From Alphaproteobacteria bacterium bin52 (GTDB taxonomy: Bacteria; Pseudomonadota; Alphaproteobacteria; Thalassobaculales; Thalassobaculaceae), in the NCBI GenBank assembly GCA_002238645.1, contig MPMT01000007.1, positions 7,502-71,501 on the forward strand: a stretch of DNA of 64,000 bases, read 5' to 3'. The position numbers were made by a program, and so were the translations under genes. Positions 2,950 to 43,790 of this stretch are shown in pieces. The notes beneath the pieces are model-generated. The model was given only the letters and a program-made list of their open reading frames with translations, did not search any database and was not told the origin of the DNA. Every line of letters starts with the position of its first letter. Position 1 is the stretch's first letter.

Positions 2950-3119
2950 TCGGCACTGAACTTCGGGTGAGTCCACCCGCGGTGAAACCGGGGCCTCGCG
3001 CCCCGGTTTTGCTGTCGAAACACCGCAGCCCGGTCGGCAACCGGACAGTGCGGCCGCCTGCGGGCCGCAACGCAGGGTGAGGCGCCCTGCACCGCGCCGA
3101 CGCGGTCAGACGCACGCAT

Positions 3120-10774: not shown

Positions 10775-10793
10775 CACACAGGGAGGAAGCGGC

Positions 10794-25185: not shown

Positions 25186-25190
25186 CGCCG

Positions 25191-27362
25191 ATGAGCAGTG
25201 CGTTCGATAAACTTGCAAGGCCTGTCCAGAAATGGATACGCCAGCAGGGCTGGCGCGAGCTTCGAGACATCCAGGCGCGATCCATCCGAACGATCTGCGA
25301 CAGCAATGCCGACTTGATCGTCGCGGCATCGACGGCAGGCGGAAAGACTGAGGCGGCGTTCCTGCCGCTGATTTCGCAAGTTCTTAATGAGCCCCCTGAC
25401 GGCTCGGGATTTGACCTGCTCTATATTGGTCCGCTCAAGGCATTGATCACAGATCAAGCCATGAGGCTGGAGGGCATCTGCCAGGAGGCAGAGATGCCGG
25501 TTGTTCCTTGGCATGGGGATATTTCGCAGTCGATCAAAACCCGCGCGTTGAAATTTCCCAGAGGGATCCTGCTGATCACGCCTGAGTCGCTTGAGGCGCT
25601 GTTCATCCGTCGTGGTTTAGAACTCCTTCGCCTGTTTGGTGCGACACGGACCGTCGTGATCGACGAGTTACACACGGTGCTCGACAGCGAGCGTGGCGTG
25701 CAGCTCCGTTCTCTGCTGACCCGCCTCGAGCTGGTGGACAACCGCCCGATCCGCCGCATAGGTCTGTCCGCCACGCTTGGCGATATGGGCCTCGCCAAGG
25801 CCTATCTACGCCCGGACAACGCTAGCGCTGTTCAACTGATCGAGGCTGAGGGCGGTGAAGCCGAACTGCGGCTCCAACTCCGCGGCTACCTGTCAGGCGA
25901 TAAAGACGAAAGCAGCCCATCCGCAACCGATGCGATCGCGGCACATCTGTTCAATCACCTTCGTGGCAGCGACAACCTGGTGTTCGCCGGAGCACGCCAG
26001 CGAGTCGAGATCTACGCGGATCGTTTGCGAGAACTCTGCGAAAAAGAACACCTGCCGCAGGAATTCTATCCCCACCACGCGAGCCTCTCCCGCGAACACC
26101 GTGACTTCGTAGAGCGCCGTCTCAAGGACCCCGCGAAACCGACAACTGCGGTTTGCACGTCGACGCTCGAGCTCGGCATAGACATTGGTGACGTGACCTG
26201 TGTGGCCCAAATCGGGGCGCCATTCAGCGTTGCCACGTTGCGACAACGGCTCGGCCGATCAGGCCGGCGCGAGGGACAGCCAGCAATCCTAAGGCAGTAC
26301 GCTGTCGAGACCAAGCTGACGCCGGAGAGCAGTTTCGTTGATCGCCTCCGTCTTGGCCTGGTCAGGTCTATCGCGATGATCGACTTGCTTTTGGAAGGCT
26401 GGTGCGAACCGCCAAAACCGCAGGCGCTTCATCTCTCGACACTGGTCCACCAGTTGTTATCGGTGATTGCGCAGCGTGGCGGTGCTTCCGCAGGCGCTAT
26501 ATACAATGTGCTCTGCCGTGAGGGCCCATTCCGAAAGGTCACGACCGAGGTCTTCGCGGATGTGCTGCGCGCGATCGGTCACCCTGAGACCGGTTTGATC
26601 GAGCAGTCTGGAAGCGGCCTCCTGCTCTTAGGTTCCGCGGGCGAGAGGTTGGTCGAGCATTACAGCTTCTATGCCGTGTTCCAGACGCCTGAGGAGTTCC
26701 GTCTGGTTGCAGATGGGCGGGACCTTGGCACCCTGCCAATCGACAATATCCTTGCACCGGGTATGCTTCTGATCTTTTCGGGGCGGCGTTGGGCGGTTCA
26801 AGAAATCCATGATCGCGAAAAGGTCATCGTGGTCAAACCCGCCAAGGCAGGTGTGCCGCCTGTCTTTGGCGGCGCTGCGGGTGACATTCATGACACCGTG
26901 ATTGATCGGATGTTCGCGGTTCTCGAAGGAGATGCCAAACCGGTCTACATGGACACGGTTTCCCTTTCGATGCTTGAGGAAGCGCGAGCCCATTATGTTC
27001 AACTAGGGTTTCGGACTAACAACATCCACAGTCTCGGTGAGCACACATCGATCATCGCAACGCGAGTTGGGACGGTGAAGACATCAACCCTCGCTCTCGC
27101 ACTCAGAAGCATAGGGTTTTCGGTCGAGCAACATGACGGGTTCTTGCTTGGGGAAGCTGGGGATGAAACACCCGATATTCAATCGGCACTAGGGGAAATT
27201 GTGTCCGGCGAACCCGTAGACCTGTTTGCCGGTGCAGGAAACCTAGTTACCGAGAAGTTTCATCGTTACCTGTCGCTGCCCCTTTTGGAGTTGGATGCCG
27301 CTTCTTCCAAGCTTGTGCCCGATCTTCTTCCGAGGGTGGCCAGTCGGATTTTTCAGGAATGA
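25191..27362 (+). CDS. sngC: DEAD/DEAH-box (Lhr-like) helicase (Shango SngC-like)
   Basis: The gene starts 5 nt after the sngB stop. It has helicase motif I AASTAGGKT and motif II VIDELH, plus later motifs (VFAGARQRVE, TSTLELGIDIGD, QRLGRSGRR). Confidence 0.85.
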   Translation: MSSAFDKLARPVQKWIRQQGWRELRDIQARSIRTICDSNADLIVAASTAGGKTEAAFLPLISQVLNEPPDGSGFDLLYIGPLKALITDQAMRLEGICQEAEMPVVPWHGDISQSIKTRALKFPRGILLITPESLEALFIRRGLELLRLFGATRTVVIDELHTVLDSERGVQLRSLLTRLELVDNRPIRRIGLSATLGDMGLAKAYLRPDNASAVQLIEAEGGEAELRLQLRGYLSGDKDESSPSATDAIAAHLFNHLRGSDNLVFAGARQRVEIYADRLRELCEKEHLPQEFYPHHASLSREHRDFVERRLKDPAKPTTAVCTSTLELGIDIGDVTCVAQIGAPFSVATLRQRLGRSGRREGQPAILRQYAVETKLTPESSFVDRLRLGLVRSIAMIDLLLEGWCEPPKPQALHLSTLVHQLLSVIAQRGGASAGAIYNVLCREGPFRKVTTEVFADVLRAIGHPETGLIEQSGSGLLLLGSAGERLVEHYSFYAVFQTPEEFRLVADGRDLGTLPIDNILAPGMLLIFSGRRWAVQEIHDREKVIVVKPAKAGVPPVFGGAAGDIHDTVIDRMFAVLEGDAKPVYMDTVSLSMLEEARAHYVQLGFRTNNIHSLGEHTSIIATRVGTVKTSTLALALRSIGFSVEQHDGFLLGEAGDETPDIQSALGEIVSGEPVDLFAGAGNLVTEKFHRYLSLPLLELDAASSKLVPDLLPRVASRIFQE

Positions 27363-27582: not shown

Positions 27583-28041
27583 TCACCGCGTTGACGCCTG
27601 CCGTTCGAGGCGGCCGTCGCCGTTCTCGTCGGTCCAGATCGGCACGACGCGCGCAGCGACGGATGCGAGGGGAAGCGGCCCGAAATACCGACCGTCCAGG
27701 CTGTCTTCCGTGTCCCAGTTCATCAGGAACACATCGCCATTGGCGATTACTCGGCAGCCCTGCCAAGAGGGCAGTTGGCGGCCCCGGCTGTCGCGTTCAC
27801 GGGCTTTGCCATAGGCGTGATCGTAAGCAGTGATCTGCGCGCCAATCCGGCACACTTGGGTGCCGGGGAGCACCAGAACGCGTTTGATCAGAGGAACGCC
27901 GAGCGGAAGATAGCCACGCGCGTCGAGGAAGCCCGCGAGATCGTCCGGCAACATGACCGCGACGAGATCGCCGACCTCAAGCCGCCCCACAGGGCGACCG
28001 AAATAGAGGCCGATCGACGCGCTGGCCGAGGCATTCCAGAT
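27583..28041 (-). pseudogene. traF: Conjugal-transfer signal peptidase TraF (S26 family), N-terminally truncated
   Basis: ..IWNASASASIGLYFGRPVGRLEVGDLV..GYLPLGVPLIKRVLVLPG..GDVFLMNWDTEDSLDGRYFGPLP matches Rhizobiales-type TraF. The N-terminal TM part and start codon are missing, and the open frame stops at the IS fragment junction (about 28042). Confidence 0.65.
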
Positions 28042-28043
28042 CC

Positions 28044-28424
28044 ATCACCGGCGTCGGACCGATCGCCGCCGCAGCCCTGATCGCCTGGATGCCGGAACTT
28101 GGCACGATCGGCAACCGGCAGGCTGCCGCTCTGCTCGGTGTTGCCCCGTACGCCCGCGACAGCGGGACATCCTCCTGAAACCGCCATGTCCGGGGGCCCC
28201 GCAGACGACCGCGCGATGTTGTCTACATGGCCGCGTTGTCGGCAATCAACTGGAACCCGGACCTGCGCAACTTCGCCAAACGGTTCCGCAATGCCGGCAA
28301 GGCCCACAAGGTGGGTGTTGTCGCGGTCATGCGCGAACTGATCGTCCTGGCCAATATCCTGCTTGGCCAGCAGCGCTCCTGGACCCCACAGCCGCCCGTC
28401 ACCGCAGCAGAAACGAACGCGTGA
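28044..28424 (+). mobile_element. IS110-family transposase, 3' fragment with in-frame stop (IS remnant)
   Basis: ITGVGPIAAAALIAWMPELGTIGNRQAAALLGVAPYARDSG..(TGA 28176-28178)..RHVRGPRRRPRDVVYMAALSAINWNPDLRNFAKRFRNAGKAHKVGVVAVMRELIVLANILL is the C-terminal (Transposase_20) half of IS110-type transposases. The N-terminal DEDD half is absent. Confidence 0.65.
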
Positions 28425-28527
28425 TCACACTCAACGAGATGCTGTCAATCGATCGAACCAGTCAAAGACACGCCGCGAGTGCGTGGCGCCCGGAAGCGAT
28501 CGAGGGCAACGACCCCGGGGATAACCT

Positions 28528-28547
28528 TGTGGATAAACTGTGGATAA
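28528..28547 (+). promoter_or_regulatory. Two tandem perfect DnaA-box nonamers (TGTGGATAA) spaced 11 bp start-to-start
   Basis: TGTGGATAA occurs at 28528-28536 and again at 28539-28547, in the same orientation. It is the reverse complement of the TTATCCACA consensus. Function is unproven. Confidence 0.4.
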
Positions 28548-28589
28548 ATCCCAAACCCGCCAACCACGCCCCCTTGACGCGAAACATGG

Positions 28590-31383
28590 ATGCTCGCCGA
28601 TACCGGTCAGCAGCATCATGACGCCGAGGACAACTACCGGCTGCATGCTGCCGCACTCGCCGACATCGAACGGATGCGGTCCGAGGCCCAGGGCCTGCAG
28701 CGGAGCATCGACGCGGCCAATGCCGACCTCGCACCGCAGCGCGACCACCTCGCGCGCACGGGAGCCCACCTGAAGGCCACGCTGCTCCACCATGTCGAAC
28801 AGCGCCGGAAGCACCTGGCGGAGCACGAACGTGCGTGTCGATCGCTTGAGGATGATGCCGCCCGAACCGATGACAGGCGCCAGAGACTGTTGAGCACTCG
28901 GGACACGGAACGCGAGGAAACAACCAGGTTCGCCACCATGCTCGACACTGCGGCCCGGGCGGCCGAACGGTTGCGGGAACAGGGCGTTCTCGAAATCGAG
29001 GCGGCAGGAGAGGATGCGAGCCGCCAAGCCTGCCTCGAATGCCGCATCACACTGCGCGAAGGCCGTGCCCGGCTCGATGCAGGGCTTGAGCGGGATCGCG
29101 GTCCCGCACCGGGACGCGCTCGAAGCCGCGCGTCGCGCGATTGCGAACGCCCCCGAACCGAACAGACCGCTGATGGTGGCCACCGCCGACGACACGCCTT
29201 CGGACGCGCCTGATGACAGGTTCGTCATCCCGCACCCGCGTGATGCGGCCTACAGCCAGCTGGCCGCCCGGGACGGGCAGTCCCAGGTCGAGGATGAGCT
29301 TCAGGACCTCGCGCGACGCATCGACGAGCTCCGGCCCCGGCTTGAGCGCCTCGAAGAACTGCATCGCACTCACACCCTGTGGCGCCGCACCGCGCCTGAA
29401 CGAAAGGAGCTGCTCAAGCGTATCGACGAGGCGGAGCGCACCCGGGCCAGATATGACCGGGAAGTCGAGCAACTCGATGCATCGGCCGAGGCTCACGCAA
29501 ATCGGGCCAGGGACCATCGCCGCGCTGCTACCCAGGCGGACCACGAGGCCGTAGTCCACCGGACCCGCGCCGGTCGGGCCCGGGAACAGTTCGAGGAACA
29601 TGAACGCCATGAGACCGACTGGAAGCGCGAACAGCTCGCACATGCCGACCGGGCGGAACTGGCCATACGCGACGCCGAAGCAGCCCTTGCGGAGCGCGAC
29701 CGGCCGAACGACCAGGCCCGGGCGGAGGCCGGGGAAGCCGGAGCAGCGGCGCGCGAGGCAGCCGGTTTCGAGACCGAGGCCGATGCCGTCTCGCCCGTCG
29801 CCGGCCCGGGCTCCGTTTACCGAGACCTTGCTACACTGCGCGACGGTTTCAACGCCGAACGCAAGAGCTTGGAAGCACTTGAAGGCGGCAGGGTTGACCG
29901 GCTGCGCGGCGAAAAGGATGGCTTGGACAAGCAGCTCGTGCGCGCCGAACAGAAGTACGGCGCCGACCATCATCAATTCGACCGCGAGCGGGTGCGCGCG
30001 CTACTGGAGCAGAGCCTGGTTGAGGATGGCGCCCGCAGGGCCGCGACCACCCTCGACGCTGCCCGCGCCGCGCTTACCGATGCCGAGGTCGAGGAACGCC
30101 ACACCCGACACCAGTTCGAGCAGGAGCAGCGCCGGTTTGCCGAGATATTCGGCACTGGCGATGCCGACGACCTTTGCGATACGGACGATCTCGATGCGCT
30201 GCGCCGAAACGCGCAGGTCGGGGCCGAGACCCGTGAACGGGAGGCGCGCAGACACGAGCAGGACGCGGAGGCGGCCAGCTCGACTGCCGCAGCGGCCGAA
30301 GCCACCGCCGGGACTTTCCGGAACCGGGCCCGTGAGATTACGGGTCACCTGCCCGACGGGTTCGGCACCCCCGGCCGGGTTGCACAAGTGCCGGACGATC
30401 AGGCACTCGACGATGCCGTCGATACCCTGGTCCGCACACTGCGCGATGGCAACCGGACCCTCGCCGATGCCGAACAGGCGCTTCTCGACCGGCACGAGGA
30501 GGAACGCGGGTTCGCCACGTCCGACGGGTTCCGCGTCCTGAAGGGCGAAAGCCAGGTCGCCTCCAATCTCGCCGCCAACTCGGCCCGTGACGCTGCCGAT
30601 GCCGCGGAGCAGACCGCCCGGCTGATCGACGACAGACTGGCGACGATCGATCACGACCTTGCACGACTCGATCATGACCTTGCAACCTGCACCGGCGAAC
30701 TCGACATGCTGCTGCGCAGGGCGCTCGGAATCCTGGGCCGGATGGTGCGCGACGGGCGTATCCCCGACGGCGTACCGCGGTTCGGTGGCCAGAGCGTGTT
30801 CCGGATCGGGACCGACCTGTCGCGTCTTGCTTCCGACCGCAGACGGGACATCCTCGAGCAATACGTGACCGATCTGGCCGAGTCGAAACGGGTCCCCGAC
30901 ACCGGCCAGAACCTGGCGGCGGAGCTCGTGGACCGGCTGCGGGTTGCCCGCGGCATTTCCAGGCTCGGCATAAGAATTCTGAAACCGAAAGGTGAGAACG
31001 AGACCGAGTAAATGCCGCTCGAACAGACTGCGGTCTCCGGGGGCGAGCTTCTGACGGCGGCAATGATGATCTACCTCGTGGTCGCGCGTCTGCGTGCGGA
31101 GGAACTGCACGGCACAACAGGCGATGCCGGGATCCTGATGATGGACAACCCGCTGGGCAAGGCGAACAAGGCCCTGCTGGTCAAGACCCAGATCGGCCTT
31201 GCCGACGCGATGGGCATCCAGCTGTTCTATGCCACCGGCATCCAGGACACGAACGCGCTCGGGGAGTTCGAGAACATAGTCCGGCTGCGCCGGGCCTGGC
31301 GCGAACTCGGCACCGACAGGATCCATCTCGCGGTCGAGGCGATGCAGGCCCACGTCGACAGCTTGGAGCGGACAAATGGGTGA
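28590..31383 (+). pseudogene. SMC-like (JetC/MksB-like) ATPase remnant: coiled-coil arms plus C-terminal head, lacking the N-terminal Walker A head
   Basis: The long Glu/Arg/Ala/Leu coiled-coil reading is split between frame 0 (28590-29213) and frame 1 (29014-31011). That requires a frameshift near 29085-29110. An in-frame TAA (31009-31011) is followed directly by MPLEQTAVSGGELLTAAMMIY...GILMMDNPLGKANKALL (ABC/SMC signature SGGE plus a Walker-B-like segment). No P-loop head lies upstream. Confidence 0.55.
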
Positions 31384-32427
31384 CTTCGTCGGACACCTGC
31401 GCGGCCTCGGCAAGCGGCGGTTCACGCTCGAGGAACTGCGAACTGCGCATCTCGCCGCCTTCCCCGAGGCGGCGGACGCCCTTGCCCCGCGTCGGTTGCT
31501 GCTCGAGGCGCTCGAAGACGCACGGGCAGCCGGTCACATCGCCCTGCCGCACACCAAGTACTGGGAACGGACCGGGACGCCGCACCTGCCGAAGTCGGCT
31601 ACGCTGTACGCTGAAGGGCTCGCCGCAGGACCGGTACCCTGGCCGGTGGCCTGGGTCCCCGAACTTGCCTTTGCCTACAGCGAACGGGGCCGGTACCGCA
31701 CCGCGCTCACCGCCATCAACCGCTTCCTGCTCAGGCACCGGAACACTGCCCTGCGCGAGGTACCGGTCAACGAACGGTCGCTGCAGATCTTCGGCAACGA
31801 GAAGCGGCTCGAGACCGATCTCGACACCGACGGCTCCACCCTGTTTGGTGGCCGCATCCCCCTGGGACTGATCGGCTGCCGCCCGGTCACGCCGCCGCTT
31901 GCGTTCGAGAAACCGAACCGGCCCGCGCCCGGGATGCCGGTCCTGGTGCTGGAGAACCTGCATCCGTGGGAGAGTTTCCGGCTGTGGAACGCGACGCGGG
32001 GCAGCTACGCCGCCATCGCCTGCGGTTACGGCAACGCCCTGCGCAAGACGCACAGGCAGCTCGAACAGGTCGCGGAGCTGCCGGCGCATCCGGACTGCTC
32101 TACTTCGGCGACCTGGATCCGCCGGGTCTGGAGATCCCGACCGCGGTCAACCGCGAGCGGCAGGCCCGGGGTCTTGCGCCGCTCGAGCCGCACTGCGGAC
32201 TCTATCGCTGGCTACTGCGCCACGGCTGCCGGTGGCTCAGCGATGCCGGCGCGAAGCAAAGCCGCGCCCCGGCTGACCTGTCAAACTAGCTGCCGGACGA
32301 CATCGCCGCCGGTCTCGCGGAGCTGTGGGCAGCCGGAGAGGTAATCCCGCAGGAGAGTTTCAGCACCGATCAGCTGGCCGGACCCGACGCCGTCTGGGTC
32401 CTGCCCGGCCGGGCCGTGCCGTCGTGA
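31376..32427 (+). pseudogene. JetD/MksG-like (DUF2220 Toprim) protein, disrupted
   Basis: The gene overlaps the preceding ORF by 8 nt. It contains VLVLENLHPWESF. After a frame change near 32090-32100 it reads LLYFGDLDPPGLEIP, a Toprim/DUF2220-like motif. An in-frame TAG at 32287-32289 follows, and the reading continues to 32427. Confidence 0.6.
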
Positions 32428-34191: not shown

Positions 34192-34579
34192 CGCAAACGC
34201 GGACAGGTCCTTCCGGAAACAGCCGCAAGCGGCGCGCCCGGCACCATGACGCGAAACCTGCCGGCGGCGCCATCAGCGGGCCCGCGACCGCCACCCGTGC
34301 GGTCCGGTTCCGCTGCGCCGCCCCCTCCACGCGACTGGCCGCGCCCATTGACCAGGCGTCCGACGCACCCTTCGCGCACCTCCTGCCGGCGCGCAGATCA
34401 GTCTTCGGAATGACCCGGAACGATCGGTTGTCGGCGGGACCTCGTTGGCCGACGGTGCGGACTTTGGTGGACTGGGTGTGCTTCGCGGGAGCGTCTGTGC
34501 GACGTCACCGGGAGGCCGGACCCGAGCCGTGGGTTGCACGGCCATTCTCGTCGGCTTCTGCGCGTGCTGGAGGGATACG

Positions 34580-35605
34580 TCAAAGGGTGAGCCCTTCGGG
34601 CAATGCGACCTCTCCCGCTTCGCCCCTTGCCAACGGCACGGTCCGGTCCACTAGATCGCGCACGAGTTGTTGATGGCTGCCGAGCTTTCGGTTTCTTCCC
34701 AGGTGCTCCAGCCGATCCGCCATCGAGCGCATGAGGTCCGTCCCGCCGCGCACCTCCACACTCGGATCGGCGATACAGACGCGGAGCAGCCCTCGGACGA
34801 TGAACACGGTGTAGCGAAGCTCGAGTGCCCACTGGCCCTTGCCGCCGGGACGCCGGTCCGAGCGGCCCGCAGAGAGCCAGTCGAGCGCCGTGGTCGTGAG
34901 ACGCGTCACCTGGGAACGAAGTGCCGGGCGAGCCGCGAGCAGATCAGTCGTTTCCATTCTGCGGCCCATCGGATGGCTGATCGCCGCCAGCAAGAATTTG
35001 TCCGGTGTCGTGCCGTCCCAACAGCCAAGCAGGGTCTCCCAGACCGTCGCGAGGGCTGAGACCGTGTTCGTGCTCCGGCCGATCCCGGAGTAGGCGGCCC
35101 ACGCGCTGAAGGGGTTGTCGAGCCCGAGGCGGTCGGCAACGGCGCGGCCTTCGTCGGAGGTGCGCGCGAGCCCGGAAGCGAGCCTCAACGCGAGGGAGTC
35201 GGGGGCGTTCGTGAACATCCATGTCGGTACGGTGTGGACTCGATTGAGCGAGGCTCCCCTCTTGACCGTGCGTTGGCCGGTCAGCACTTCCTCAAAGCGA
35301 CCGACCATCGCGTCCCCGGCGTCGTTCACCAGGCGTCGACGTTCGCGTTCGGTCGTCTTGGCCTTGGGGGGGTCCGGATCTCGTACCCAAGGGGGGTCCC
35401 CCGCGCTGTCGATCGGATACCGGAGGTCGCTCCATTTCGAGTTGAAGATGTCGTAAAGACTCTTGTAGAGGTCGACAATCCTGGATCCTTCGGTGCGATC
35501 GTCTCGCCACCAGTCGCGAAGCTCGGCCAAATGGCTCTCGAGTTCGAGCCAAGCGTCCTCGTCGGCCTCGAAGACGTAAAGCAGAGGGATGGCCGCGACG
35601 TTCAT
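34580..35605 (-). CDS. Unknown 341-aa protein, last gene (E) of the McrBC-derived five-gene operon
   Basis: ATG 35603-35605 lies 13 nt downstream of the gene D stop and is preceded by a purine-rich AAGAGAG. The upstream part of track ORF 34580-36316 is an out-of-frame overlap with D. Composition looks coding, but I recognise no family. Confidence 0.6.
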   Translation of the reverse strand: MNVAAIPLLYVFEADEDAWLELESHLAELRDWWRDDRTEGSRIVDLYKSLYDIFNSKWSDLRYPIDSAGDPPWVRDPDPPKAKTTERERRRLVNDAGDAMVGRFEEVLTGQRTVKRGASLNRVHTVPTWMFTNAPDSLALRLASGLARTSDEGRAVADRLGLDNPFSAWAAYSGIGRSTNTVSALATVWETLLGCWDGTTPDKFLLAAISHPMGRRMETTDLLAARPALRSQVTRLTTTALDWLSAGRSDRRPGGKGQWALELRYTVFIVRGLLRVCIADPSVEVRGGTDLMRSMADRLEHLGRNRKLGSHQQLVRDLVDRTVPLARGEAGEVALPEGLTL

Positions 35606-35618
35606 CTCTCTTACCCGT

Positions 35619-38600
35619 TCAGTCGGGGTCCGACACACGAAGGATGGCGGGATGGGTCGCGATCTCACGACCGTCCAGCCCGTAAGGGTGGTGGTACAGC
35701 ACGAGTTGCGGCTCGCCTCCAAGCGGTCGCACGCGCACCCTCGGCTCAAGGCGCGTGTAGCCCCCGTGAAGTGCGCTGCGGTCGAGTTTGACCTCCTGGC
35801 GGTACTTCTCGTTGCCGGCCCCGGCGAGGAAGCCCTCCTGCCACTGGCCCTCCAGCCGTCGTCGCAGCTTGACCGGAACGCGCCATTCACCGGGCTGTAT
35901 CGAGAGCAGCACCTCATGCTGGGCTGGGGTAGTCCATAGGCCTCGGCCGGCTTCCAGCGCCTCGCGCTCGGGGATGAGGCGGAGCCACCAGCGTCCGTCC
36001 TCGTCTTCCTCGCATTTGTCGAGCGCAAGCCCCTCCGGCGGGGCGGCGACCTCGATGGCCAGGCTTTCGACGTGGTCGAGCCAGCAGACGTCGCCTTCGT
36101 CGAGGCGGCGTCCGATCTCCCAAGCACCCCGGAGGGTCTGCTCCGGCTCGACGGCCAGTACGGTGAGACCCGGCAACGCCGAGCTGATTTCTCGGGCTCC
36201 CGCGTCGCTCCAGCCCGGGATCGGACTCTCGACGAGAATTCGGCGGCAGCCGGTGCGTTCGGACAGGGCTCGGAGCGTTGCAACGAGCGATTCGTCGACG
36301 TCAATGGGGCGTGCATTGGGATCGTGACGACGCCGTATGGGAACCGCCTCGCCCCGCGTGAAGAGAAACGTCGATGTATTGCCCTCGTGCGGTTTTATCC
36401 GAGCCGCATCAAGGTGGAGGATGTCGGTCTGCGTCTTCAGATCGTCGACGTTCACTCCGGTTCGAGACCACGCGGCCTCGGCGGCGCGAAGTCGGCGGGG
36501 CCAGGGGGCCTCCCGGCCGGTGGCGACCGCGGAACCGCGAGTCATCCGCTCGACCAACAGCGGGACCTCGGCGCGCTGCCACGGCCGCAGCCGCGTATGG
36601 GTGAGGGCGACTTCGCCGTCCACCTGAACGATGAGGTAGTCTCCGGGCGCTCCACCGGTCAGTTTGTGGCCCTCCGTCACTGCGACGGACCGCCAGACGA
36701 GGAGGCAGCGCCGGTGCGGCCCGACGGCTTTGGAGAGGCCGTCGGCGACGCGTCGCTGTCTCTCTCCCGCTCGTAGCCCAGTGTCGGGCACGATCGCGAC
36801 GGCGAGCGGGTCGTCGCCCATGAGGCGGCGTACTGCGGACGAGACGAGTTCGTTGGCGAGGTCCATGGTCTCGATGTCGCCCAAAGGGATGTATGAGGCG
36901 GACCCGGTGGTCGGCTGGATCCTGGCTTGCGCGGCGACTTCTGTTGCCTCCCCGATCCCCCTTGCGCGAAGCGCCGTTCCGAGGAAGCGGACGTCGACCG
37001 ATCCGGTCGAATCTTCGCGGGCGAGGCGGGAGAACGAGGAGCGGAGATCGAGAGAGACGATGCCCGACCGGCTGCCGGATCGCCGGAGGCGTCCCAAGGG
37101 TGGTTCCGGGGCCAGCTTGGCGCCTCTTGGAACGCTGTGGAGGGTGGATGCGGTCGCTCGTTCGAGGAGCTTTCTTGTCCAGACCCGCCAGTTCCTCGCG
37201 CCGGTGTTGGTCGGGAGGGTGACGAGTCTTTCGCGCCGAGCCCGGCCGATCCAGTCAGCGCGATCGCTCGCGATCACGTGCAGCGCCGGACCGGGACCGA
37301 GCACGGTTGCGATCGCGCCGATCATGCAGCGGTCGTCCGTCGCGACCGAGAGGGAGGCGGAGGCGTGCTTGCCGACACGCAGGACGAGCGACGGGCCGTC
37401 GTCGGTCCAGTGTCGTCCCTGCGCCGGGGCGTCGCGCCGGATCGCGAGCGGGCCGCTCGCCACCACGAGTGGGGAGCTCTCGCCGAGCATGGCGCATATG
37501 GTTGCCTGGGCCTCATCCCGGCGGGTGAGCCCCTGCCAGATCCACTGCTGCTCGGCGCGCTGTTCCTGGCGGAGGAGGTCCAACCACGCCCCGAGGACAC
37601 GCCGGTAGCGCTCGTCGTGACGAAGCGCAAAACTCCGGTTCGTCGCCGTCGCGGCGTCGTGGGCCGGGGCTTGACGCGCGCCTTGGAGACGGAGTCCGTC
37701 GGCGACGCGCCGTGCCCGGTTCTGCATCGAACGTACGAGCTCGGCTCCGTGCGCCATATCGCCGCGCTCGGCAAGCCAAGACCTGGCCTCCGTGTCGTAG
37801 AGCGCCGCATAGGCGACCACGACGCGGTTCTCCAGGGTGTCGGTAGTCGCGTAGCGCTCCGGCGTCACCATCCTCTGCCGGGGGCCGCAGCGCTCCGCCG
37901 TCGAGCGTCCGGCTTGTCTGCACAGCCACCGGATCGTCTTGGCGTCCACCTCGCGTACCTTCGACAGGCGCACCGGGCGGTGGCGGCGGCGGAGGAGTCG
38001 ACGTGGGCTCCCCTCAATGCCCGCGAGCACAGGCAACAATGCCCGGGCCTGTTCCCGGAGGAGCTCTCCCAACGGATCGACCGCCTCCGGGTCGGCCTCG
38101 CTCGCGAGAATCGCGGCCGATGTGCGCCAGAGCACGGACTGGTCATGGCAGACCGCGCTCGCGTCCGCGACGCGCTTCATGCGGTTGGCGGCGCGGTCCA
38201 ACCTATCGAGGGTCCGTCCGGAGCGTTGCTTTGTTGCCGATGTACCCGCAGCTTGGCGCCGCCCTTCCCATGACTCGACGTTGATCGTGAACGACTGGTC
38301 GAGTGTTACCCAGACACGAATTCGACTGACCCGGGCCGGTCGGGCGGGGAGGTGCCACGCCAACCATTCGGCATCGATGTCGAGGCTCCCCGTGCCGCGC
38401 CCGCGGGTTCGCGGAAGATGTTGCCGGCTTCCCAGATAGATCCAGGGTGGAACCTCGCAGAGGGTGGAGTGCTCCGTGGGGGAGAGTCGATCGACGATCA
38501 GAATCGCATCGGCACGGGCGCGGTCCGGACCAAGCTCCTCCCCGCTCCGGACCGGTTGCACGACCGCCGAGCCGTCCCCGGCAACGGCAGCATGCAGATC

Positions 38601-38630
38601 GTACAGACTCCGGGCGACGCGAATCCTCAA
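35619..38630 (-). CDS. 1003-aa protein (gene D): McrC/DUF2357-like N-terminal half fused to a putative degenerate Hsp70/actin-like ATPase-fold half
   Basis: The TTG start lies 3 nt after the gene C stop; an alternative GTG sits at codon 23. The TLENR motif (aa 265-269, nt 37824-37838) is followed by the RYRRVLGAWLDLL helix, as in McrC-type partners. Residues ~520-850 follow the Hsp70 motif order (IVSLDLRSSFS; LAVAIVPDTGLRAGERQRRVADGLSKA; LIVQVDGEV; RILVESPIPGW; AVEPEQTLRGAWEIG). Confidence 0.7.
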   Translation of the reverse strand: MRIRVARSLYDLHAAVAGDGSAVVQPVRSGEELGPDRARADAILIVDRLSPTEHSTLCEVPPWIYLGSRQHLPRTRGRGTGSLDIDAEWLAWHLPARPARVSRIRVWVTLDQSFTINVESWEGRRQAAGTSATKQRSGRTLDRLDRAANRMKRVADASAVCHDQSVLWRTSAAILASEADPEAVDPLGELLREQARALLPVLAGIEGSPRRLLRRRHRPVRLSKVREVDAKTIRWLCRQAGRSTAERCGPRQRMVTPERYATTDTLENRVVVAYAALYDTEARSWLAERGDMAHGAELVRSMQNRARRVADGLRLQGARQAPAHDAATATNRSFALRHDERYRRVLGAWLDLLRQEQRAEQQWIWQGLTRRDEAQATICAMLGESSPLVVASGPLAIRRDAPAQGRHWTDDGPSLVLRVGKHASASLSVATDDRCMIGAIATVLGPGPALHVIASDRADWIGRARRERLVTLPTNTGARNWRVWTRKLLERATASTLHSVPRGAKLAPEPPLGRLRRSGSRSGIVSLDLRSSFSRLAREDSTGSVDVRFLGTALRARGIGEATEVAAQARIQPTTGSASYIPLGDIETMDLANELVSSAVRRLMGDDPLAVAIVPDTGLRAGERQRRVADGLSKAVGPHRRCLLVWRSVAVTEGHKLTGGAPGDYLIVQVDGEVALTHTRLRPWQRAEVPLLVERMTRGSAVATGREAPWPRRLRAAEAAWSRTGVNVDDLKTQTDILHLDAARIKPHEGNTSTFLFTRGEAVPIRRRHDPNARPIDVDESLVATLRALSERTGCRRILVESPIPGWSDAGAREISSALPGLTVLAVEPEQTLRGAWEIGRRLDEGDVCWLDHVESLAIEVAAPPEGLALDKCEEDEDGRWWLRLIPEREALEAGRGLWTTPAQHEVLLSIQPGEWRVPVKLRRRLEGQWQEGFLAGAGNEKYRQEVKLDRSALHGGYTRLEPRVRVRPLGGEPQLVLYHHPYGLDGREIATHPAILRVSDPD

Positions 38631-38633
38631 TTG

Positions 38634-40535
38634 CTAATCCGCGCGGGTCCGGTCGAGGCCGAGCCAAGTGAACGTGCTGTGGTTCGGGATGGCGTCGATA
38701 CGGGCGTCGAGCGCCGAGGCAAGGTCGTCGTCGCCCACGTTCTCGACCACGTCGCGCAGCGTACGGAGGCCTTTTCTCAACGCGTCCGTATCTTCGGAGC
38801 CGTTGAGCTTCGGGAGCACTCTCATCTCGACTTGGTCCGCGATGGCGTGCCGCCAGCTTCCGGGATAGCAGCGGACGTAGTGGTACATCGCCTGCACCAC
38901 GCGGTGCCCGACCCCCCGCTCGCACTCCGTGATCGCCCGTGCGATTTCGCGAATGGAGCCCTCGACCGCGAGCATGTCGGTGTCTTCCCGCTTCCGGCCG
39001 CACCACTTCTCGAAGAGCATTGCCGTCACATATTCTGTCTGCCGAGGGGCGGCCGGCTCGTCGCTCAGTCGATCCACCTGGAGATTCCCCTCGCTTGGCG
39101 CAGCGAAGCGCAGGGTGTTGCTCCGGTCAAGGACCTTGTCGGAAAGACTTTGCGTTGTTTCGTCCTCGTTGAGCGTTCCCGTCCAGAGCACACGATACGG
39201 AATGGCGAGGCGCATCGCCTGGATCTCGCCGTTTGCGCGTTTCGGCATCTGGATCGCGACTTGGCTTTCAGCGTAACCCGCCCCCCCCGGCTCGCGCATT
39301 TCAAGCCGACTCAGGAGTTCAGCGAAGTAGTACTCCGTGCGGGCGAGGTTCATCTCGTCGAGGAGGATGACGGCCAGCCGATTGGTGAATCGTTTGGCTT
39401 CGTCCGGCCAGTTGGCACTGTCGAAGTGCACCAGTAGCTGGGCTCGCTCGGTGGCCCTGTATTGCCCGGAGATGTAGTCGTAGAAGCCAAGCAGGTCCTG
39501 CGGGCTGTCCCATCCCGGCTCCACCGGGACGTGGAGGAACGCGGCGCCGAGGGCGCGAGCATACTCCCTCGGGAGCTGCGATTTTCCCGTTCCGGATACG
39601 CCAGCAAGGACGGTTAAAGGCGAGATTGACCGAGTCTTCACGGCGGTGTGAAAGGCCCTCACCGTGCGGGGGTGGTAGCGAAGCCTCTGGGCTTCGAGCT
39701 GCTGCTCGAGGTTGTCGAGAAACTCGTCCTCCCGCTCCACGGGCCGATCCGTCGGCAGCGGCTCGTAGTCCTCTACTTCGGTCAGGCAAGCGGGGGTGTC
39801 ACGGAGCTCGTCGATCCCTGGTCCCGTCTCTTCCGGACGATCCACCTGCACTCGCAACGGTCCCTCGGGAAACGTCACCTCTCCTCCGGTGAGCTGGGCA
39901 TTCTCGAGTGCCTCTTTCACTTCCTTCGCCGCAGCCAGCTCCTGGAGCGCGTTGTCGCGTTGGCGTATCGCGCCCTCGCACTCCTCCCTTGCTTGGTCCC
40001 GAGTACGGCGAGCCTCCTGCGCGTCGGCCTGAAGCTCTGAAACTTCCTTCTTCAGGTGACTGATTTGGTCGCGCAATCGCGCATGCAGTTCGCTGTGCTT
40101 CTCCAGTTCCACCTCAAGGCGCTTCTTCTCTGCGTCGAGGCCATCTGTGGCCCGCCGCAAGCGTTCCATCTCTGCGAGTTTCTCGTCGGCTCCTTGGAGT
40201 TGGCGTTGCTTCTGGTCGAGGCGGCTCTCGAGTTCCGCAACCGTACGGTTGACCTCTTCGCGAGCCGTGTCGAGGGCCTGTTCGTCTCGCTGGATCTGCT
40301 GTGCCTGTTCAATCGTGTTCTTCGCGTCGCGATATTCGGCGTCGATCGAGGTGAGCGACGCCGAGACGCGATCATGCTCGGCCAGGAGCTGGGCGATCCT
40401 CGCTCGCCACAGGTCCAGTTCGCCTCGCCGAACAGCCCCGACAAAGATCGCCACGGCAAAGCCGACGAGGACCGCGGTCAGCGTGGTGGCCCCGTGGAGT
40501 ATCCATCCTTGCGCTACCCACGACGGCCAAGTCAT
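38634..40535 (-). CDS. Membrane-anchored coiled-coil McrB-like AAA+ GTPase (gene C)
   Basis: It has an N-terminal TM helix (ILHGATTLTAVLVGFAVAIFVGAV) and ~170 aa of coiled coil. Walker A GVSGTGKS is at 39579-39602 and Walker B is AVILLDEMNLA. GTLNEDETTQSLSDKVLDRSNTLRF matches the McrB/AAA_5 signature. The start overlaps the gene B stop (ATGA). Confidence 0.8.
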   Translation of the reverse strand: MTWPSWVAQGWILHGATTLTAVLVGFAVAIFVGAVRRGELDLWRARIAQLLAEHDRVSASLTSIDAEYRDAKNTIEQAQQIQRDEQALDTAREEVNRTVAELESRLDQKQRQLQGADEKLAEMERLRRATDGLDAEKKRLEVELEKHSELHARLRDQISHLKKEVSELQADAQEARRTRDQAREECEGAIRQRDNALQELAAAKEVKEALENAQLTGGEVTFPEGPLRVQVDRPEETGPGIDELRDTPACLTEVEDYEPLPTDRPVEREDEFLDNLEQQLEAQRLRYHPRTVRAFHTAVKTRSISPLTVLAGVSGTGKSQLPREYARALGAAFLHVPVEPGWDSPQDLLGFYDYISGQYRATERAQLLVHFDSANWPDEAKRFTNRLAVILLDEMNLARTEYYFAELLSRLEMREPGGAGYAESQVAIQMPKRANGEIQAMRLAIPYRVLWTGTLNEDETTQSLSDKVLDRSNTLRFAAPSEGNLQVDRLSDEPAAPRQTEYVTAMLFEKWCGRKREDTDMLAVEGSIREIARAITECERGVGHRVVQAMYHYVRCYPGSWRHAIADQVEMRVLPKLNGSEDTDALRKGLRTLRDVVENVGDDDLASALDARIDAIPNHSTFTWLGLDRTRAD

Positions 40536-41578
40536 TGGGACGTACCAACCGCGGTTCCGATGAGCCGTTGCAGCTCCTCCAACCCAGCTTTGGCTTCATC
40601 CCGCGCCGTCCGGAGACGGGTGAGGTCGGAGCGAAGCGCCGCTTTCTTTGCTTCGAGTTCAGTGACCTGCCGTTCCGCTGCCCCGCGGCTCGCCTCTACC
40701 CGATCCAACGCCGCTTGCGCTTCGTGCATGCGCGACTCGGCGTCCAGGGCTTCCTGAACAGCCGCTTCGCGGTCCTTTCCCATCTGCGCCATTGCTTCGG
40801 CCGCGTTGCGAACGGTGCCTTCGAGGCGTTTCTCGTCGTCGCGAAGCCGCGTGATCCGGGCTTCCAGACCCGCTGCCTCGGGACCGAGCTTGAGGAGCTG
40901 AGCTTCGAGCGCGCGGTGCTGCGTCTCGAGGCGGACCTTCTCGCGGTTTGCTTCCTCGACCTGCTCGAGCGTGGCGCTAAGCTCCTCGCGTGCCTTTTCG
41001 TTTCCAGTCACAGTCTCGGTCAGCGATCGCTTTGCTTCGGTGAGGTCGGTGCGCGCTTGATCAAGCTCACTGCGGGCATTCGTCGTGGCGGAGCGGACAT
41101 CCTCAAGCTGGCGCGTCCCAGTTTCGAACAACTGTTCCAGCTCGGTTTTCTGTTGTTGGAGGCCTTCAATCGAGAGTCCGAGATCCCGTTGACGGCGTTC
41201 GAGCGTGGCGACGTTGGCTGACAGGTCGGCTTCCGTCTTCCCAAGCTGCTTGACGCTTTCCCGGGTTGCGTTCTCCTCTTCTTGAATCGTCCGCAGAGTC
41301 GTATGGGCGTGGTTTAGCCGGGTCGTCACTTCGTCGGCTTCCAGCCGAATCTGCTCCGTCTGCTCAACCAGTTTCTCGATCTGAAGCTCAAGGCGATCGC
41401 GGCGCTGGCCGAGTTGCTCCACGTCGGCCTCAAGTGCCAAGCGCTGCCCGGGAAGCCCCTCAAGTGCGTCGTCCACCTGCGAACGGGCGATGTTGAGCAG
41501 GGCGGCCGTGACGATCATTGCCAATGCCAAGGCCGACAAGACGATCCTTCCTCCTGTCGAGACCAACTTTGTGCTCAT
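40532..41578 (-). CDS. Membrane-anchored all-coiled-coil protein (gene B)
   Basis: The internal ATG at 41576-41578 overlaps the gene A stop (ATGA). The product has a TM helix (IVLSALALAMIVTAALLNI) followed by ~300 aa of uninterrupted heptad-like Glu/Leu/Arg/Gln/Ala sequence. Confidence 0.7.
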   Translation of the reverse strand: MSTKLVSTGGRIVLSALALAMIVTAALLNIARSQVDDALEGLPGQRLALEADVEQLGQRRDRLELQIEKLVEQTEQIRLEADEVTTRLNHAHTTLRTIQEEENATRESVKQLGKTEADLSANVATLERRQRDLGLSIEGLQQQKTELEQLFETGTRQLEDVRSATTNARSELDQARTDLTEAKRSLTETVTGNEKAREELSATLEQVEEANREKVRLETQHRALEAQLLKLGPEAAGLEARITRLRDDEKRLEGTVRNAAEAMAQMGKDREAAVQEALDAESRMHEAQAALDRVEASRGAAERQVTELEAKKAALRSDLTRLRTARDEAKAGLEELQRLIGTAVGTSQ

Positions 41579-42525
41579 TGTTCTCTCAGTTCCTCTATTC
41601 GTTGCTGGACGCGGGCGGCACATGCCCGAGCGTCTTGGTCGACCTGATCGGACCAGAAGCGAAGTGGCTCCCAACCGAGCAGTCGCATGCGGCGGTCGCG
41701 GTCGACATCCTCTGGGCGGAGGCGTCCGTCGGGTCCCTGATGGTAGAGGCGTCCGTCGACCTCGATGTCGAGCCGCACGATTGGGGGCCCGGGCTCCTCA
41801 TAAGCGAAGTCGAGCCAGCTTCCGCCCACCGGCCGCTGGCTCTCGACCTCGATTTGGGCGCCGGCGAGCGCGGCTTCGAGGTGCCGTTCACTGTTCGAGG
41901 CGGTCCCACCACGGCCGCGTTCGGCCTCGCGGGTGATCGCACGCTCTGCCCAACGGGCGAGCCCCGCCAGCCCTTCCGGGGTGGTGCATGGACCAACGAA
42001 GTGGACGAGCGTTCCTGCATGGCGGAAAGCGGTGAGGAGTTCGTGCTCCGCTACGTCGGGAAGTACCGTGGTCGTGTCCCAGTAGACCAGATCGCCGTTC
42101 ATGCCGATCAGCTTGGCGCGCTCTGACTCGGTCAGCTGACCTGTAAGGACCTCAACACGGGGAGCTTCCGACAACAGAATCTTGGCGAGCGTGATCTCGG
42201 CCGCGATGCGGTTCGGGATCTGTTTGGGGGGACAGGTGGTCCAATGCCAACGTTGCCAATTCTTGCGGGCGTCGGCGAGCGTCCAGCCGCGAATTCTGGA
42301 GGGGAAGACCTTCCCATCTAGAAGCAGGCGGCAGACCTCGAGGAGCGCCCCGGGGCTGAGGGTTACGGCTTCGCCATCGGAGCATACTCGGCTCAGCCGT
42401 ACGCCTGCGAGTCGAGCGGTATGGCGAGCGCCGAGCCAGCGTCCTTGGGGTCGAGCTTGCGAGGGAAGTCGGGATTCCAACGGGGGATCTGCGGTCTCGT
42501 GCGCGGCGTGCTGAGGTTCGCCCAT
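41575..42525 (-). CDS. Protein with C-terminal DUF559 / Vsr-like PD-(D/E)XK endonuclease domain and unknown N-terminal ~210 aa (gene A)
   Basis: The C-terminus (..SWLDFAYEEPGPPIVRLDIEVDGRLYH...DVDRDRRMRLLGWEPLRFWSDQV) matches the DUF559 pattern (xDF..., IExDG, RDxxLxxxGWxVLRF). The putative catalytic D239/E255/D257 are present. Confidence 0.7.
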   Translation of the reverse strand: MGEPQHAAHETADPPLESRLPSQARPQGRWLGARHTARLAGVRLSRVCSDGEAVTLSPGALLEVCRLLLDGKVFPSRIRGWTLADARKNWQRWHWTTCPPKQIPNRIAAEITLAKILLSEAPRVEVLTGQLTESERAKLIGMNGDLVYWDTTTVLPDVAEHELLTAFRHAGTLVHFVGPCTTPEGLAGLARWAERAITREAERGRGGTASNSERHLEAALAGAQIEVESQRPVGGSWLDFAYEEPGPPIVRLDIEVDGRLYHQGPDGRLRPEDVDRDRRMRLLGWEPLRFWSDQVDQDARACAARVQQRIEELREQ

Positions 42526-43790
42526 CGTGCCGCCCGCGATGAGGGGGAACTACCCGCAGGCTATAGGTACGAGACCGAAACCGTGGCCGATTTCACGCGC
42601 CGGGACAGAATGCCGCGATTTGGGGGGCGAAGCTGCCTCGACAGACATTCCCGAGACCCCGTCGGTGGCGGCGGACGACTTGCTTCCCGACACATACAAC
42701 ATTGCACACTCCCCTCGTTAATCGTCCGGGAGGAACCGGGACGATTCGCTATTCCGCTTTGCCCTCCCGCACTAGATACGCCGCCGGGCGCCTGAGCCCG
42801 GCCCCGGGAAGCCGGTCAACGCCGCAATCTGTCGCAGGCCGCCGTCGAATGCACTCCCTTCGAATAAAGATCTCATCTGATAGCCGAGTTTAGCCGTATC
42901 GACAACATAAACCTGTCGTGGTTTCCGTGTGCTGAGCCGCTCCTCAGCATGAGAATAGGTTCCAGCCGCACGAGCGGGACTTCGGGCCTATTCGGGGTCG
43001 TCGTCCCGGCCGCGATCGCCGCCACTCCCGCCCAGCCGTTGCTGGCGTTGGCCGAGCACGGGGTGCGGCTGATCGCCGCGGCGCGCTGGTAGCGGGCCGG
43101 AGGCCTGAGGGGACCAGCAGCGGCCGCGCGAGGTGTTCGGCCGGAATACGTTCGTCGAGCGCGTCGGCGACTTTGCGCTCAAGTCGATCCCGAGAGCCAG
43201 CGACCCACGGTCGCATCGTGGCGGTGCGGGCGTATAGTCCCGGCAGCGCAGTGTCGGTGCGGCTGATGACCGTCGAGAACGGCCGGAGCGTCCTGCGGGT
43301 GGCGAACCCCGGCCGATCCGGAACGGCGAGGCCGGCCGGCCGGTTCCTCCCGGGCCATCAGACGTCACGGGTGCTCCGACGCACGGCCGCCCTGCGAACG
43401 CTCCCACTCCGACAACGGCGTACCCCCGCATTCAGGCGGGAACACGAACGCCCTCCCGGCGATCCGGGTGCGGGCCCGGATCGAAACCCCTACCCGGGAT
43501 TTCCGCCAAGCCGGTCGTGGTCGCTTCGGCGACCGCGTCTTCGCCGCCGCCATGAGCCGCCGCCTCGAACCGGGAGTTACCCGGGATGACCCCCCAGGGA
43601 GTGAGCCGGTGGCGCGGCCGGCACCGACCGCAGTGCGGCAGGCCGTTTGCGCTCCCGTACCGACTCGACTGCGGCCGGGACAGTCGGTCAGCTCGTGAGG
43701 ACGAGAGGGATTGGGGGCGTGCAGGCAATGGTGCGAGCAGACGTGACGTCAGGTCCCGGCAGGACCCTGCTGTTCAGACCTGCGCGGTTG

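Follow-up and report, generated by a model that had tools for sequence, protein, structure and literature searches.

What system is encoded by the five closely packed genes on the minus strand of a 64,000-nucleotide (nt) stretch of Alphaproteobacteria bacterium bin52 (contig MPMT01000007.1; the whole stretch is called the window below), and does it belong to a described class? An earlier note, made by a model from the letters of this DNA, had taken genes A to E for a translationally coupled operon derived from McrBC and for a member or relative of the coiled-coil nuclease tandem (CoCoNuT) branch, with a layout that it could not match to a described subtype. Within that branch, the Type III-B gene set is CnuH (a helicase–Vsr fusion), CnuA, CnuB, CnuC and CnuD (Bell et al., eLife 2024, PMC11090510). 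We put the probability at about three in four that the locus is an intact, horizontally mobile defence cassette of 8 kb that derives, in streamlined form, from the Type III-B branch of CoCoNuTs, themselves McrBC-like Type IV restriction systems. The suspected kinship with CoCoNuTs holds, and the unmatched layout can be refined to that of a rearranged Type III-B locus: the operon is a helicase-less variant within an already defined, computationally described branch, not a new kind of system. Its genes, their main parts and the block of DNA that contains them are listed here, with lengths in amino acids (aa).

Gene A: 41575–42525, minus strand; 316 aa
Nuclease domain of A (aa ~206–316): 41575–41910, minus strand; Vsr/DUF559-like PD-(D/E)xK domain
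Gene B: 40532–41578, minus strand; 348 aa from ATG, with a possible extension of the open reading frame (ORF) to TTG at 41674
Gene C: 38634–40535, minus strand; 633 aa
GTPase domain of C (aa ~240–633): 38634–39818, minus strand; Walker A, Walker B and NxD signature
Gene D: 35619–38630, minus strand; 1,003 aa, TTG start
N-terminal half of D (aa 1–515): 37086–38630, minus strand; CnuC/McrC homologue with the DUF2357 helical domain and, at its N-terminus, a putative beta region
C-terminal half of D (aa 516–1003): 35619–37085, minus strand; predicted first ~500 residues of CnuD, with an Hsp70-like nucleotide-binding domain (NBD) and the beginning of the beta part of the substrate-binding domain (SBD)
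Gene E: 34580–35605, minus strand; 341 aa, ATG start
Conserved mobile cassette: 34519–42549, no strand assigned; block of DNA homology shared with close relatives (blastn)

One block in unrelated surroundings

All five ORFs are present where the earlier note had placed them, and direct reading of the junctions agrees with the packing that it described. A overlaps B, and B overlaps C, through ATGA. C ends in TAG, which is followed by CAA and then by the TTG start of D (a gap of 3 nt), and the TGA of D is followed by 13 nt, including the ribosome-binding-like stretch AAGAGAG, before the ATG of E. The gene for the Vsr-like nuclease, A, stands in the same translationally coupled operon as C and D.

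The operon is real and lies far outside what chance would give: three independent metagenomic contigs carry the same 8-kb block at 83–93% DNA identity, with the same genes in the same order (L095, 1.98 Mb; L096, 451 kb; and L003, 17 kb, which ends inside E). The earlier note had staked its reading on the co-conservation of the five genes in other genomes, and in these three relatives they are kept as one unit. Blastn matches to the window are confined to 34519/34573–42549, beginning at 34776 in L003, and the flanks of all three contigs are unrelated to those of the window. The relatives' flanks hold integrases, a serine recombinase, transposases, ParA, a reverse transcriptase and genes of prophages. 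At the ends of the cassette, no terminal repeats were found, either direct or inverted.

All five genes are under purifying selection, with ratios of non-synonymous to synonymous substitution rates (dN/dS; Nei–Gojobori, window versus the three relatives) of 0.16–0.46. The values are 0.35–0.42 for A as a whole (0.44–0.62 in its N-terminal stub and 0.15–0.20 in its Vsr domain), 0.34–0.46 for B, 0.17–0.19 for C as a whole (0.13–0.15 in its GTPase domain), 0.19–0.32 for D (0.25–0.39 in its C-terminal half) and 0.16–0.24 for E.

These values bear on a rival reading, in which the locus is a decaying Type III-B remnant and the deletion of the helicase, the fusion of two genes and the fission of another are steps of pseudogenisation. 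Decay would fit the loss of the helicase core, the rearranged gene boundaries and the degraded state of a neighbouring Wadjet system. It would also fit the edges of the conserved block, which ends 24 nt upstream of the start of A and 7–61 nt past the stop of E in L096 and L095, and in which no promoter seems to be included; a promoter scan predicted none for the cassette, and terminator-like sites were no commoner than in shuffled sequence. Set against decay are the five intact ORFs and their selection, an arrangement that at least 4 contigs share in spite of their different flanks, and a helicase-less clade, described below, that is old and diverse and has invariant nuclease residues. Because dN/dS is low and the same arrangement recurs in unrelated flanks, we regard the cassette as a selected, mobile unit, and we rejected decay as very improbable.

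The five proteins and their CoCoNuT counterparts

The protein that ties the operon to CoCoNuTs is C. It carries Walker A (G312-V-S-G-T-G-K318-S), Walker B (L391-L-D-E-M-N396) and GTLNEDETTQSLSDKVLDR, and its NxD signature is N456-E457-D458(-E459), in GTLNEDETT. Walker A (G312–S319), Walker B and N456-E457-D458 are invariant in alignments of 19 and of 114 homologues. The McrB branch that includes the CoCoNuT GTPases with fused coiled coils is defined by NxD instead of NxxD, with an E or D directly after it (PMC11090510). Pfam finds AAA_5 in C just above its cut-off (E = 6e-5, 23.5 bits against 22), in line with the McrB/AAA_5 pattern and the Walker motifs quoted in the earlier note, and PADLOC matches C to PDC-M26A (E = 2e-36); NCBIfam contributes nothing specific. 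Homologues number 3,543 at E ≤ 1e-5; a tight group at 77–95% identity is followed by a gap down to 44% or less.

An AlphaFold2 model of C, computed from the 114-sequence alignment, has a mean predicted local distance difference test score (pLDDT) of 80.5. It contains a continuous helix (aa 11–210), a disordered linker and a globular part (aa 240–633); the coiled-coil stalk is ~170 residues long, coiled-coil families match aa ~33–213, and full-length profiles of C retrieve only coiled-coil proteins among PDB sequences. Foldseek against the PDB places the globular domain in the AAA+ group with MoxR-like 2r44, BchI/ChlI, MCM, dynein, RavA and NorQ, and its matches include McrB (6ut3_D, E = 4.7e-6; 6hz4_E, E = 3.9e-5; also 6ut4_A). 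C appears to be CnuB, in which a transmembrane (TM) helix and a coiled coil precede an McrB-like AAA+ GTPase of the NxD type. We assign it to McrB because of the NxD signature and the DUF2357 partner, the fold itself being only compatible with this assignment.

That partner is the N-terminal half of D. As the earlier note had expected from the TLENR motif, Pfam detects DUF2357, the N-domain of McrC, at aa 190–271 of D (E = 1e-7, 32 bits against a cut-off of 23.3), and TLENR itself (T265–R269) is invariant or nearly so among CnuC homologues. By blastp, aa 54–450 of D match aa 59–461 of CnuC from relatives (E down to 8e-40) and aa 641–991 match aa ~150–505 of CnuD; in a multiple alignment, aa 516–1003 of D followed by E are colinear with full-length CnuD. 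D is thus CnuC joined to the N-terminal, Hsp70-like stretch of CnuD (~500 residues). Among 5.8 billion proteins, D has only eight close homologues (79–94% identity) and one distant one, and a homologue search with a CnuD profile brought back the close ones alone. In a HMMER search of 1.84 billion cluster representatives, the 1,003-aa form makes up a single 50% cluster, and nearly all the best listed of 602 hits at E ≤ 1e-3 are ~500-aa CnuC proteins that cover the N-terminal half of D alone.

The second half of D is where the earlier note had seen an Hsp70-like part, and here the claim survives at the level of the family. We compared a CnuD profile with an Hsp70 profile built from DnaK of Escherichia coli and ten plasmid-borne members of the Hsp70 family (DnaK, HscA, HscC and others). 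The two align over 378 colinear columns that span the NBD, the interdomain linker and the start of the SBD (hhalign, 91.5%, E = 8.5e-7), with GxDLNGW opposite GIDLGTTNS, LLWRPVAA opposite IINEPTAA and LDxLP opposite LLDVTPLSLG. The ATPase residues of the module are degenerate: the position of E171 is taken by the R of WRP/S, phosphate-2 is not conserved, and D has DLRSS where relatives and Hsp70 have DLNGW and DLGTT. This degeneracy agrees with the published view of CnuD as a poor ATPase (PMC11090510). The Hsp70 likeness of this half of D is thus supported at the profile level and accords with the published description.

The gene that the earlier note had listed as an unknown fifth is real, and it can now be given an identity. 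Aa 3–339 of E match the last ~335 residues of the 841–868-aa CnuD of helicase-less relatives (blastp, 27–31% identity, E down to 5e-42), and the break between D and E falls at a conserved motif (SIPELYIFE or IPELYIFE in relatives, IPLLYVFE at the start of E). E also matches aa 1048–1358 of P0140, a 1,360-aa CnuC–CnuD fusion (E = 1e-35); it matches nothing in Pfam, PADLOC or NCBIfam, nor, even with a profile of the E family, among PDB sequences. These alignments and their colinearity show E to be the C-terminal domain of CnuD, split off and encoded by a gene of its own; the corresponding region of CnuD has been termed HEAT-like (PMC11090510).

For A, the predicted DUF559/Vsr-like PD-(D/E)XK C-terminus is found by Pfam at aa 214–310, where both MTES_1575 (E = 3e-10, 40.3 bits, cut-off 38.2) and DUF559 (E = 7e-6, 26.3 bits, cut-off 20.6) exceed their thresholds. 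This domain matches PDB 3hrl, a DUF559 endonuclease-like protein (E = 2.5e-5), is 38% identical to the Vsr end of one CnuH, and has four residues, D239, E255, D257 and H262, that are invariant in 8 homologues. It is the only domain of the cassette predicted to be an active nuclease.

The Vsr module described in the earlier note is therefore present; what was called a separate protein can be refined to a truncated helicase–nuclease. The A family (A6) aligns with the CnuH family (A7) at 99.7% (hhalign, E = 1.6e-26, a score that owes part to the Vsr domain), with aa 60–313 of A covering the last ~290 columns of the ~1,050-aa CnuH. The aligned region of CnuH comprises the end of the second RecA-like domain, whose helicase motifs are degenerate, and the Vsr domain. 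The RecA2 stub is the more weakly backed of the two parts: tblastn matches reach back to aa ~150–165 of A in several helicases, and helicase-less loci show only the Vsr part of CnuH. The Walker A and B helicase core is absent from A, and no helicase gene is found in the cassette by ORFs or Pfam. A appears, then, to be a C-terminal remnant of CnuH, with a degenerate RecA2 stub and a Vsr/DUF559 nuclease, from which the helicase core has been deleted.

B had been described as almost pure coiled coil, and so it is: Pfam, PADLOC and NCBIfam return coiled-coil families only, beside an N-terminal TM-like segment. In 64 of 73 related loci, the gene upstream of CnuB is placed and built as B is. B, the second coiled-coil protein with a membrane anchor, thus holds the place of CnuA, with which it is equated by position and architecture alone. 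B and C have one N-terminal hydrophobic segment each (aa ~5–35 and ~11–38; Kyte–Doolittle 19-mer above 1.6). The earlier note's two membrane anchors are thus present, but they are not peculiar to this locus: among family loci L001–L083, TM-like N-terminal segments occur in 75 of 78 CnuB proteins and 64 of 73 upstream coiled-coil proteins. Such near-universal anchors on both coiled-coil proteins suggest that the family acts at the membrane, a point left undiscussed in the main text of the defining paper, which mentions transmembrane helices for the CoCoPALM clade only (PMC11090510).

Could the operon instead be a classical McrBC, restricting DNA in a modification-dependent manner with D as its nuclease? 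An McrB-like and McrC-like pair with a tight junction, and the Foldseek matches of C to McrB, would suit such a system. Yet the signature of C is NxD rather than NxxD, and a TM helix and coiled coil stand where McrB has its DNA-binding domain. After DUF2357, D lacks a Pfam nuclease domain and continues into the CnuD-like module; a conserved D...(D/E)xK motif is absent from 16 aligned CnuC sequences. A separate nuclease gene is translationally coupled upstream. We considered this possibility and rejected it as improbable. The NxD signature of C, the Pfam matches to AAA_5, DUF2357 and DUF559 and the co-conservation of the five genes bear out the placement of this McrBC-derived operon with the CoCoNuTs.

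Several results nevertheless pull away from a Type III-B derivation, as do the missing promoter and terminator signals noted above. McrB is not the top Foldseek match of C, whose fold does not single out McrB among its AAA+ neighbours, and profile searches of PDB sequences with C and with its GTPase domain did not reach McrB. Searches of the same sequences with D and with the CnuD and CnuC profiles (phmmer and hmmsearch) returned nothing meaningful and did not find McrC. Hsp70 was found neither by Pfam nor among PDB sequences, with D or with 22 CnuD homologues, so that the Hsp70-like half called by the earlier note is invisible to both; a smaller alignment headed by the window sequence gave the same hhalign alignment at only 37.5% (E = 3.5e-4). 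An AlphaFold2 run on D with an alignment of 10 close sequences had a mean pLDDT of 33 and gave no usable fold. The loss of nuclease activity from D is suggested by the absence of a motif alone. B has no significant blastp match to the CnuA proteins of relatives and shares no homology with them beyond composition and architecture. The related loci described below are equated with Type III-B by matching their architecture to the published description, a defence role for the cassette is argued from homology and context, and we found no published experimental test of Type III-B or of the helicase-less lineage.

Related loci, a proposed mechanism and the genomic setting

Scanning the C alignment against 185,579 reference genomes yielded 80 loci, mostly from Alphaproteobacteria. 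The nearest CnuB proteins are 35–39% identical to C, none exceeding 39% over the full length. In most of these loci, tblastn and ORF maps show a ~1,050-aa superfamily 1 (SF1) helicase–Vsr/DUF559 protein, a TM–coiled-coil protein, CnuB, a ~500-aa DUF2357 protein and a 780–930-aa protein. Nine of 83 loci related to C, L003 among them, have no helicase and carry a short A-like gene.

The loci without a helicase largely fall together. In a neighbour-joining tree of 79 CnuB GTPase domains (200 bootstraps; other CoCoNuT types and the authors' III-B reference sequences are not in the tree), the window, L003 and the helicase-less loci L004, L006, L008, L010, L011 and L042 form one clade (bootstrap 196/200). 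L012, on a short contig, lies inside it and L013 just outside, and the loci among which the window's C is nested carry the gene set published for III-B. The clade is old and diverse, at ~36% identity to C; its A-like proteins are 300–330 aa long with invariant nuclease residues, and its loci occur in Paracoccaceae, Arenicellales, Porisulfidus and other metagenome-assembled genomes (MAGs). The main text of the CoCoNuT paper calls helicase association ‘nearly completely conserved’ and does not describe a helicase-less form (PMC11090510); the SF1 helicase has so far been treated as a near-obligate partner of Type II and III systems.

Complete CnuC–CnuD fusions are rare. P0140 carries its E-like domain at aa 1048–1358, and P0132 (1,241 aa) is similar. 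Because such proteins exist, we suggest that fusion came first and fission later, with the complete fusions as a plausible intermediate.

A fusion of the same two genes is also seen in Kiritimatiellae and gut-MAG loci (L001, 3279–6341; L035, 3662–6700; L039, 11947–14973). There, a coiled-coil gene, CnuB and a 1,020-aa DUF2357 protein are followed downstream by the helicase–Vsr gene, and the 1,020-aa protein holds a CnuD-like region (hhalign, 99.1% against the CnuD profile). This fusion is independent and lies inside a helicase–Vsr system.

How might the cassette work? From the McrBC paradigm and the anatomy of the cassette we infer the steps that follow, substrate, trigger and assembly included, a derivation that tells against the scheme. 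C would form a hexameric GTPase ring tethered at the inner membrane, and the DUF2357 part of D would insert into that ring and stimulate GTP hydrolysis. A scaffold that recruits the other subunits may come from bundling between the coiled coils of B and C. The degenerate Hsp70-like module, made up of the C-terminal half of D and E, could be the sensor, with foreign nucleic acid or some product of the phage as its ligand. Licensed by the GTPase cycle, A, the sole predicted active nuclease, would then cut invading nucleic acid near the membrane, and the GTPase motor alone would have to supply any translocation formerly provided by the lost helicase. We favour DNA as the substrate of A, because Vsr/DUF559 enzymes are DNA endonucleases and because the complex would sit at the site of foreign-DNA entry.

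A different substrate is implied by the authors of the CoCoNuT paper, who favour RNA targeting for III-B on account of the Hsp70-like CnuD proteins (PMC11090510), and their view counts against ours. In an RNA-targeting or abortive system, the Hsp70-like module would bind viral or aberrant RNA or ribosome-associated substrates, and the Vsr-like nuclease would degrade RNA, or host and phage nucleic acid together, leading to dormancy or death. PD-(D/E)xK nucleases can cleave RNA, the degenerate ATPase motifs of the module fit a binding role, and protection from RNA phages has been reported for a Type II CoCoNuT-like locus. The known activity of Vsr/DUF559 enzymes speaks for DNA instead, HEPN, cold-shock, YTH and SmpB-like RNA-binding domains are absent from the cassette (Pfam, PADLOC and NCBIfam), and the membrane tethering of B and C fits interception at the envelope at least equally well. 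RNA targeting is, in our estimate, unlikely, though it is the strongest of the rival explanations.

Beyond cleavage of foreign DNA by this cassette, a broader proposal can be made, which we offer speculatively and would ourselves bet against. The helicase-less clade would be an undescribed CoCoNuT subtype in which the SF1 helicase is dispensable, and the whole III-B-like family would form a membrane-tethered complex in which a catalytically dead Hsp70-like module detects some product of the phage at the envelope and, by way of the NxD GTPase, controls the Vsr nuclease. If true, this would be a principle of sensing and localisation so far unproposed for McrBC-derived systems. CoCoNuTs are a large, computationally defined McrBC-like branch with almost no experimental work, and the cassette is a compact natural variant, self-contained and mobile, with five genes in 8 kb. 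It presents three natural dissections: the helicase has been deleted and the nuclease kept, the McrC-like adaptor and the Hsp70-like module have been fused, and the C-terminal domain of that module has been detached. As a minimal construct, it could serve to study how an NxD GTPase couples to a non-McrC nuclease, what ligand the Hsp70-like module binds, and whether the helicase is needed.

The genomic setting was part of the earlier note's case for immunity, which had placed the operon beside other immunity cassettes between ettA and mlaC. The cassette does lie between EttA and MlaC/MlaA, and one neighbouring defence system is complete, but the other is degraded. The complete one is a Shango system on the plus strand (21354–27362), with SngA (TerB_N/TerB/TerB_C, 848 aa; PADLOC E = 3e-101), SngB (BrxC/D-type ATPase, 435 aa; E = 9e-175) and SngC (DEAD helicase, 723 aa; E = 1e-269). 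Its GC content of 0.55–0.60, versus ~0.67, suggests recent acquisition. The degraded one is a Wadjet type III remnant, also on the plus strand (29014–32344), in which JetC matches its model only from position ~682 and has a stop at 31009–31011, and JetD covers only model positions 11–237 of 345; neither JetA nor JetB was identified in 27800–29000. Between the cassette and mlaC, the ~1.2 kb of 42550–43790 hold no convincing ORF, Rfam match or transfer RNA (tRNA), and no tRNA was found near the cassette.

The same surroundings, with the anchors on B and C, bear on whether the operon might be a non-immune membrane machine derived from McrBC, for DNA uptake, conjugation or plasmid competition, and related to CoCoPALM. 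Its TM–coiled-coil–GTPase fusion resembles the FtsB-like fusion described for CoCoPALM (PMC11090510), and the cassette travels on integrative and mobile elements. Yet signal-peptidase and pilus-assembly genes are found neither in the cassette nor in the flanks of the window, L003, L095 and L096; the accessory genes (Vsr nuclease, CnuC and CnuD) are those of the CoCoNuT III-B set; and the neighbours are defence systems. We give such a machine little credence and reject membership of CoCoPALM.

In L003, the 86%-identical relative, an AAA_15/AAA_21 ATPase and a DUF4276 protein form a PARIS-like pair (2941–4574) ~1.5 kb upstream of the cassette, which gives it the setting of a defence island there as well. 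Elsewhere in the window, 11856–11955 (plus strand) matches the Rfam family PYLIS_3, a pyrrolysine insertion sequence, with 57.9 bits, inside an MttB-superfamily coding sequence. We rejected pyrrolysine insertion there: the ORF (10242–12371; Pfam MTTB, 1e-106), which adjoins a DAO/GCV_T dehydrogenase gene, is uninterrupted and has no in-frame stop, and the match reflects coding-sequence similarity in a non-pyrrolysine MttB homologue.

Comparison with known systems

Canonical McrBC systems, such as those of E. coli and T. gammatolerans, share with the cassette a tandem of an AAA+ NTPase and a DUF2357 partner, and the fold of C matches McrB (6ut3, 6hz4). The cassette differs from them in having NxD rather than NxxD, a membrane anchor and coiled coil but no DNA-reader domain, an McrC homologue without a recognisable PD-(D/E)xK motif, and three extra genes. 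The helicase–Vsr anti-phage proteins Hhe and ProA and the PADLOC candidate PDC-S37 resemble it in the DUF559/MTES_1575 end, which matches the nuclease domain of A; these and the PADLOC candidate PDC-M26 are single large helicase–nucleases or profile-only candidates, whereas A has no helicase. CoCoPALM, which is named but not described in detail in the CoCoNuT paper (PMC11090510), likewise has TM and coiled-coil helices ahead of an NxD McrB-like GTPase, but the partners in the cassette are CoCoNuT III-B components.

Among CoCoNuTs, the earlier note had known of no experimental characterisation. That statement is outdated for a Type II-like locus, ‘Obs’ of Pseudomonas aeruginosa, which, according to a 2026 preprint, protects against two RNA phages, PP7 and LeviOr01, and the DNA phage MPK7 (10.64898/2026.04.06.716636); it holds for Type III-B, for which, as for CoCoPALM, we found no follow-up in the literature.

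Type III-A resembles the cassette in carrying DUF2357 and the Hsp70-like module in one polypeptide, CnuCD. In III-A, CnuCD includes the HEAT-like region, CnuH has SmpB-like and RNase-toxin-like domains, CnuE has two HEPN domains and TerY-P is usually present (PMC11090510). By Pfam, NCBIfam and PADLOC, the five cassette proteins have no HEPN or other III-A partner domain, and no PADLOC model is matched by D or E. Because the CnuC–CnuD fusion of the cassette arose, on the evidence of the CnuB tree, within the III-B-like clade, it appears to be convergent with that of III-A.

The closest relative is Type III-B. With it the cassette shares an NxD coiled-coil McrB-like GTPase with a stand-alone coiled-coil protein just upstream, a DUF2357 McrC homologue that lacks a recognisable nuclease motif, sequence homologous to CnuD, a Vsr/DUF559 effector nuclease and the lack of a TerY-P module; its C falls within a CnuB clade nested among loci of III-B layout, predominantly from Alphaproteobacteria. 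Other features depart from Type III-B. The SF1 helicase core and the N-terminal winged helix-turn-helix and OB-fold of CnuH are gone, leaving the last ~250 residues, and one protein joins CnuC to the Hsp70-like part of CnuD, whose C-terminal domain (the last ~340 residues) is a separate gene. Because two defining features thus fail, a helicase-fused CnuH and a separate CnuD, we do not file the locus as III-B sensu stricto; it probably descends from Type III-B and would work like it, but stands outside that type in the strict sense.

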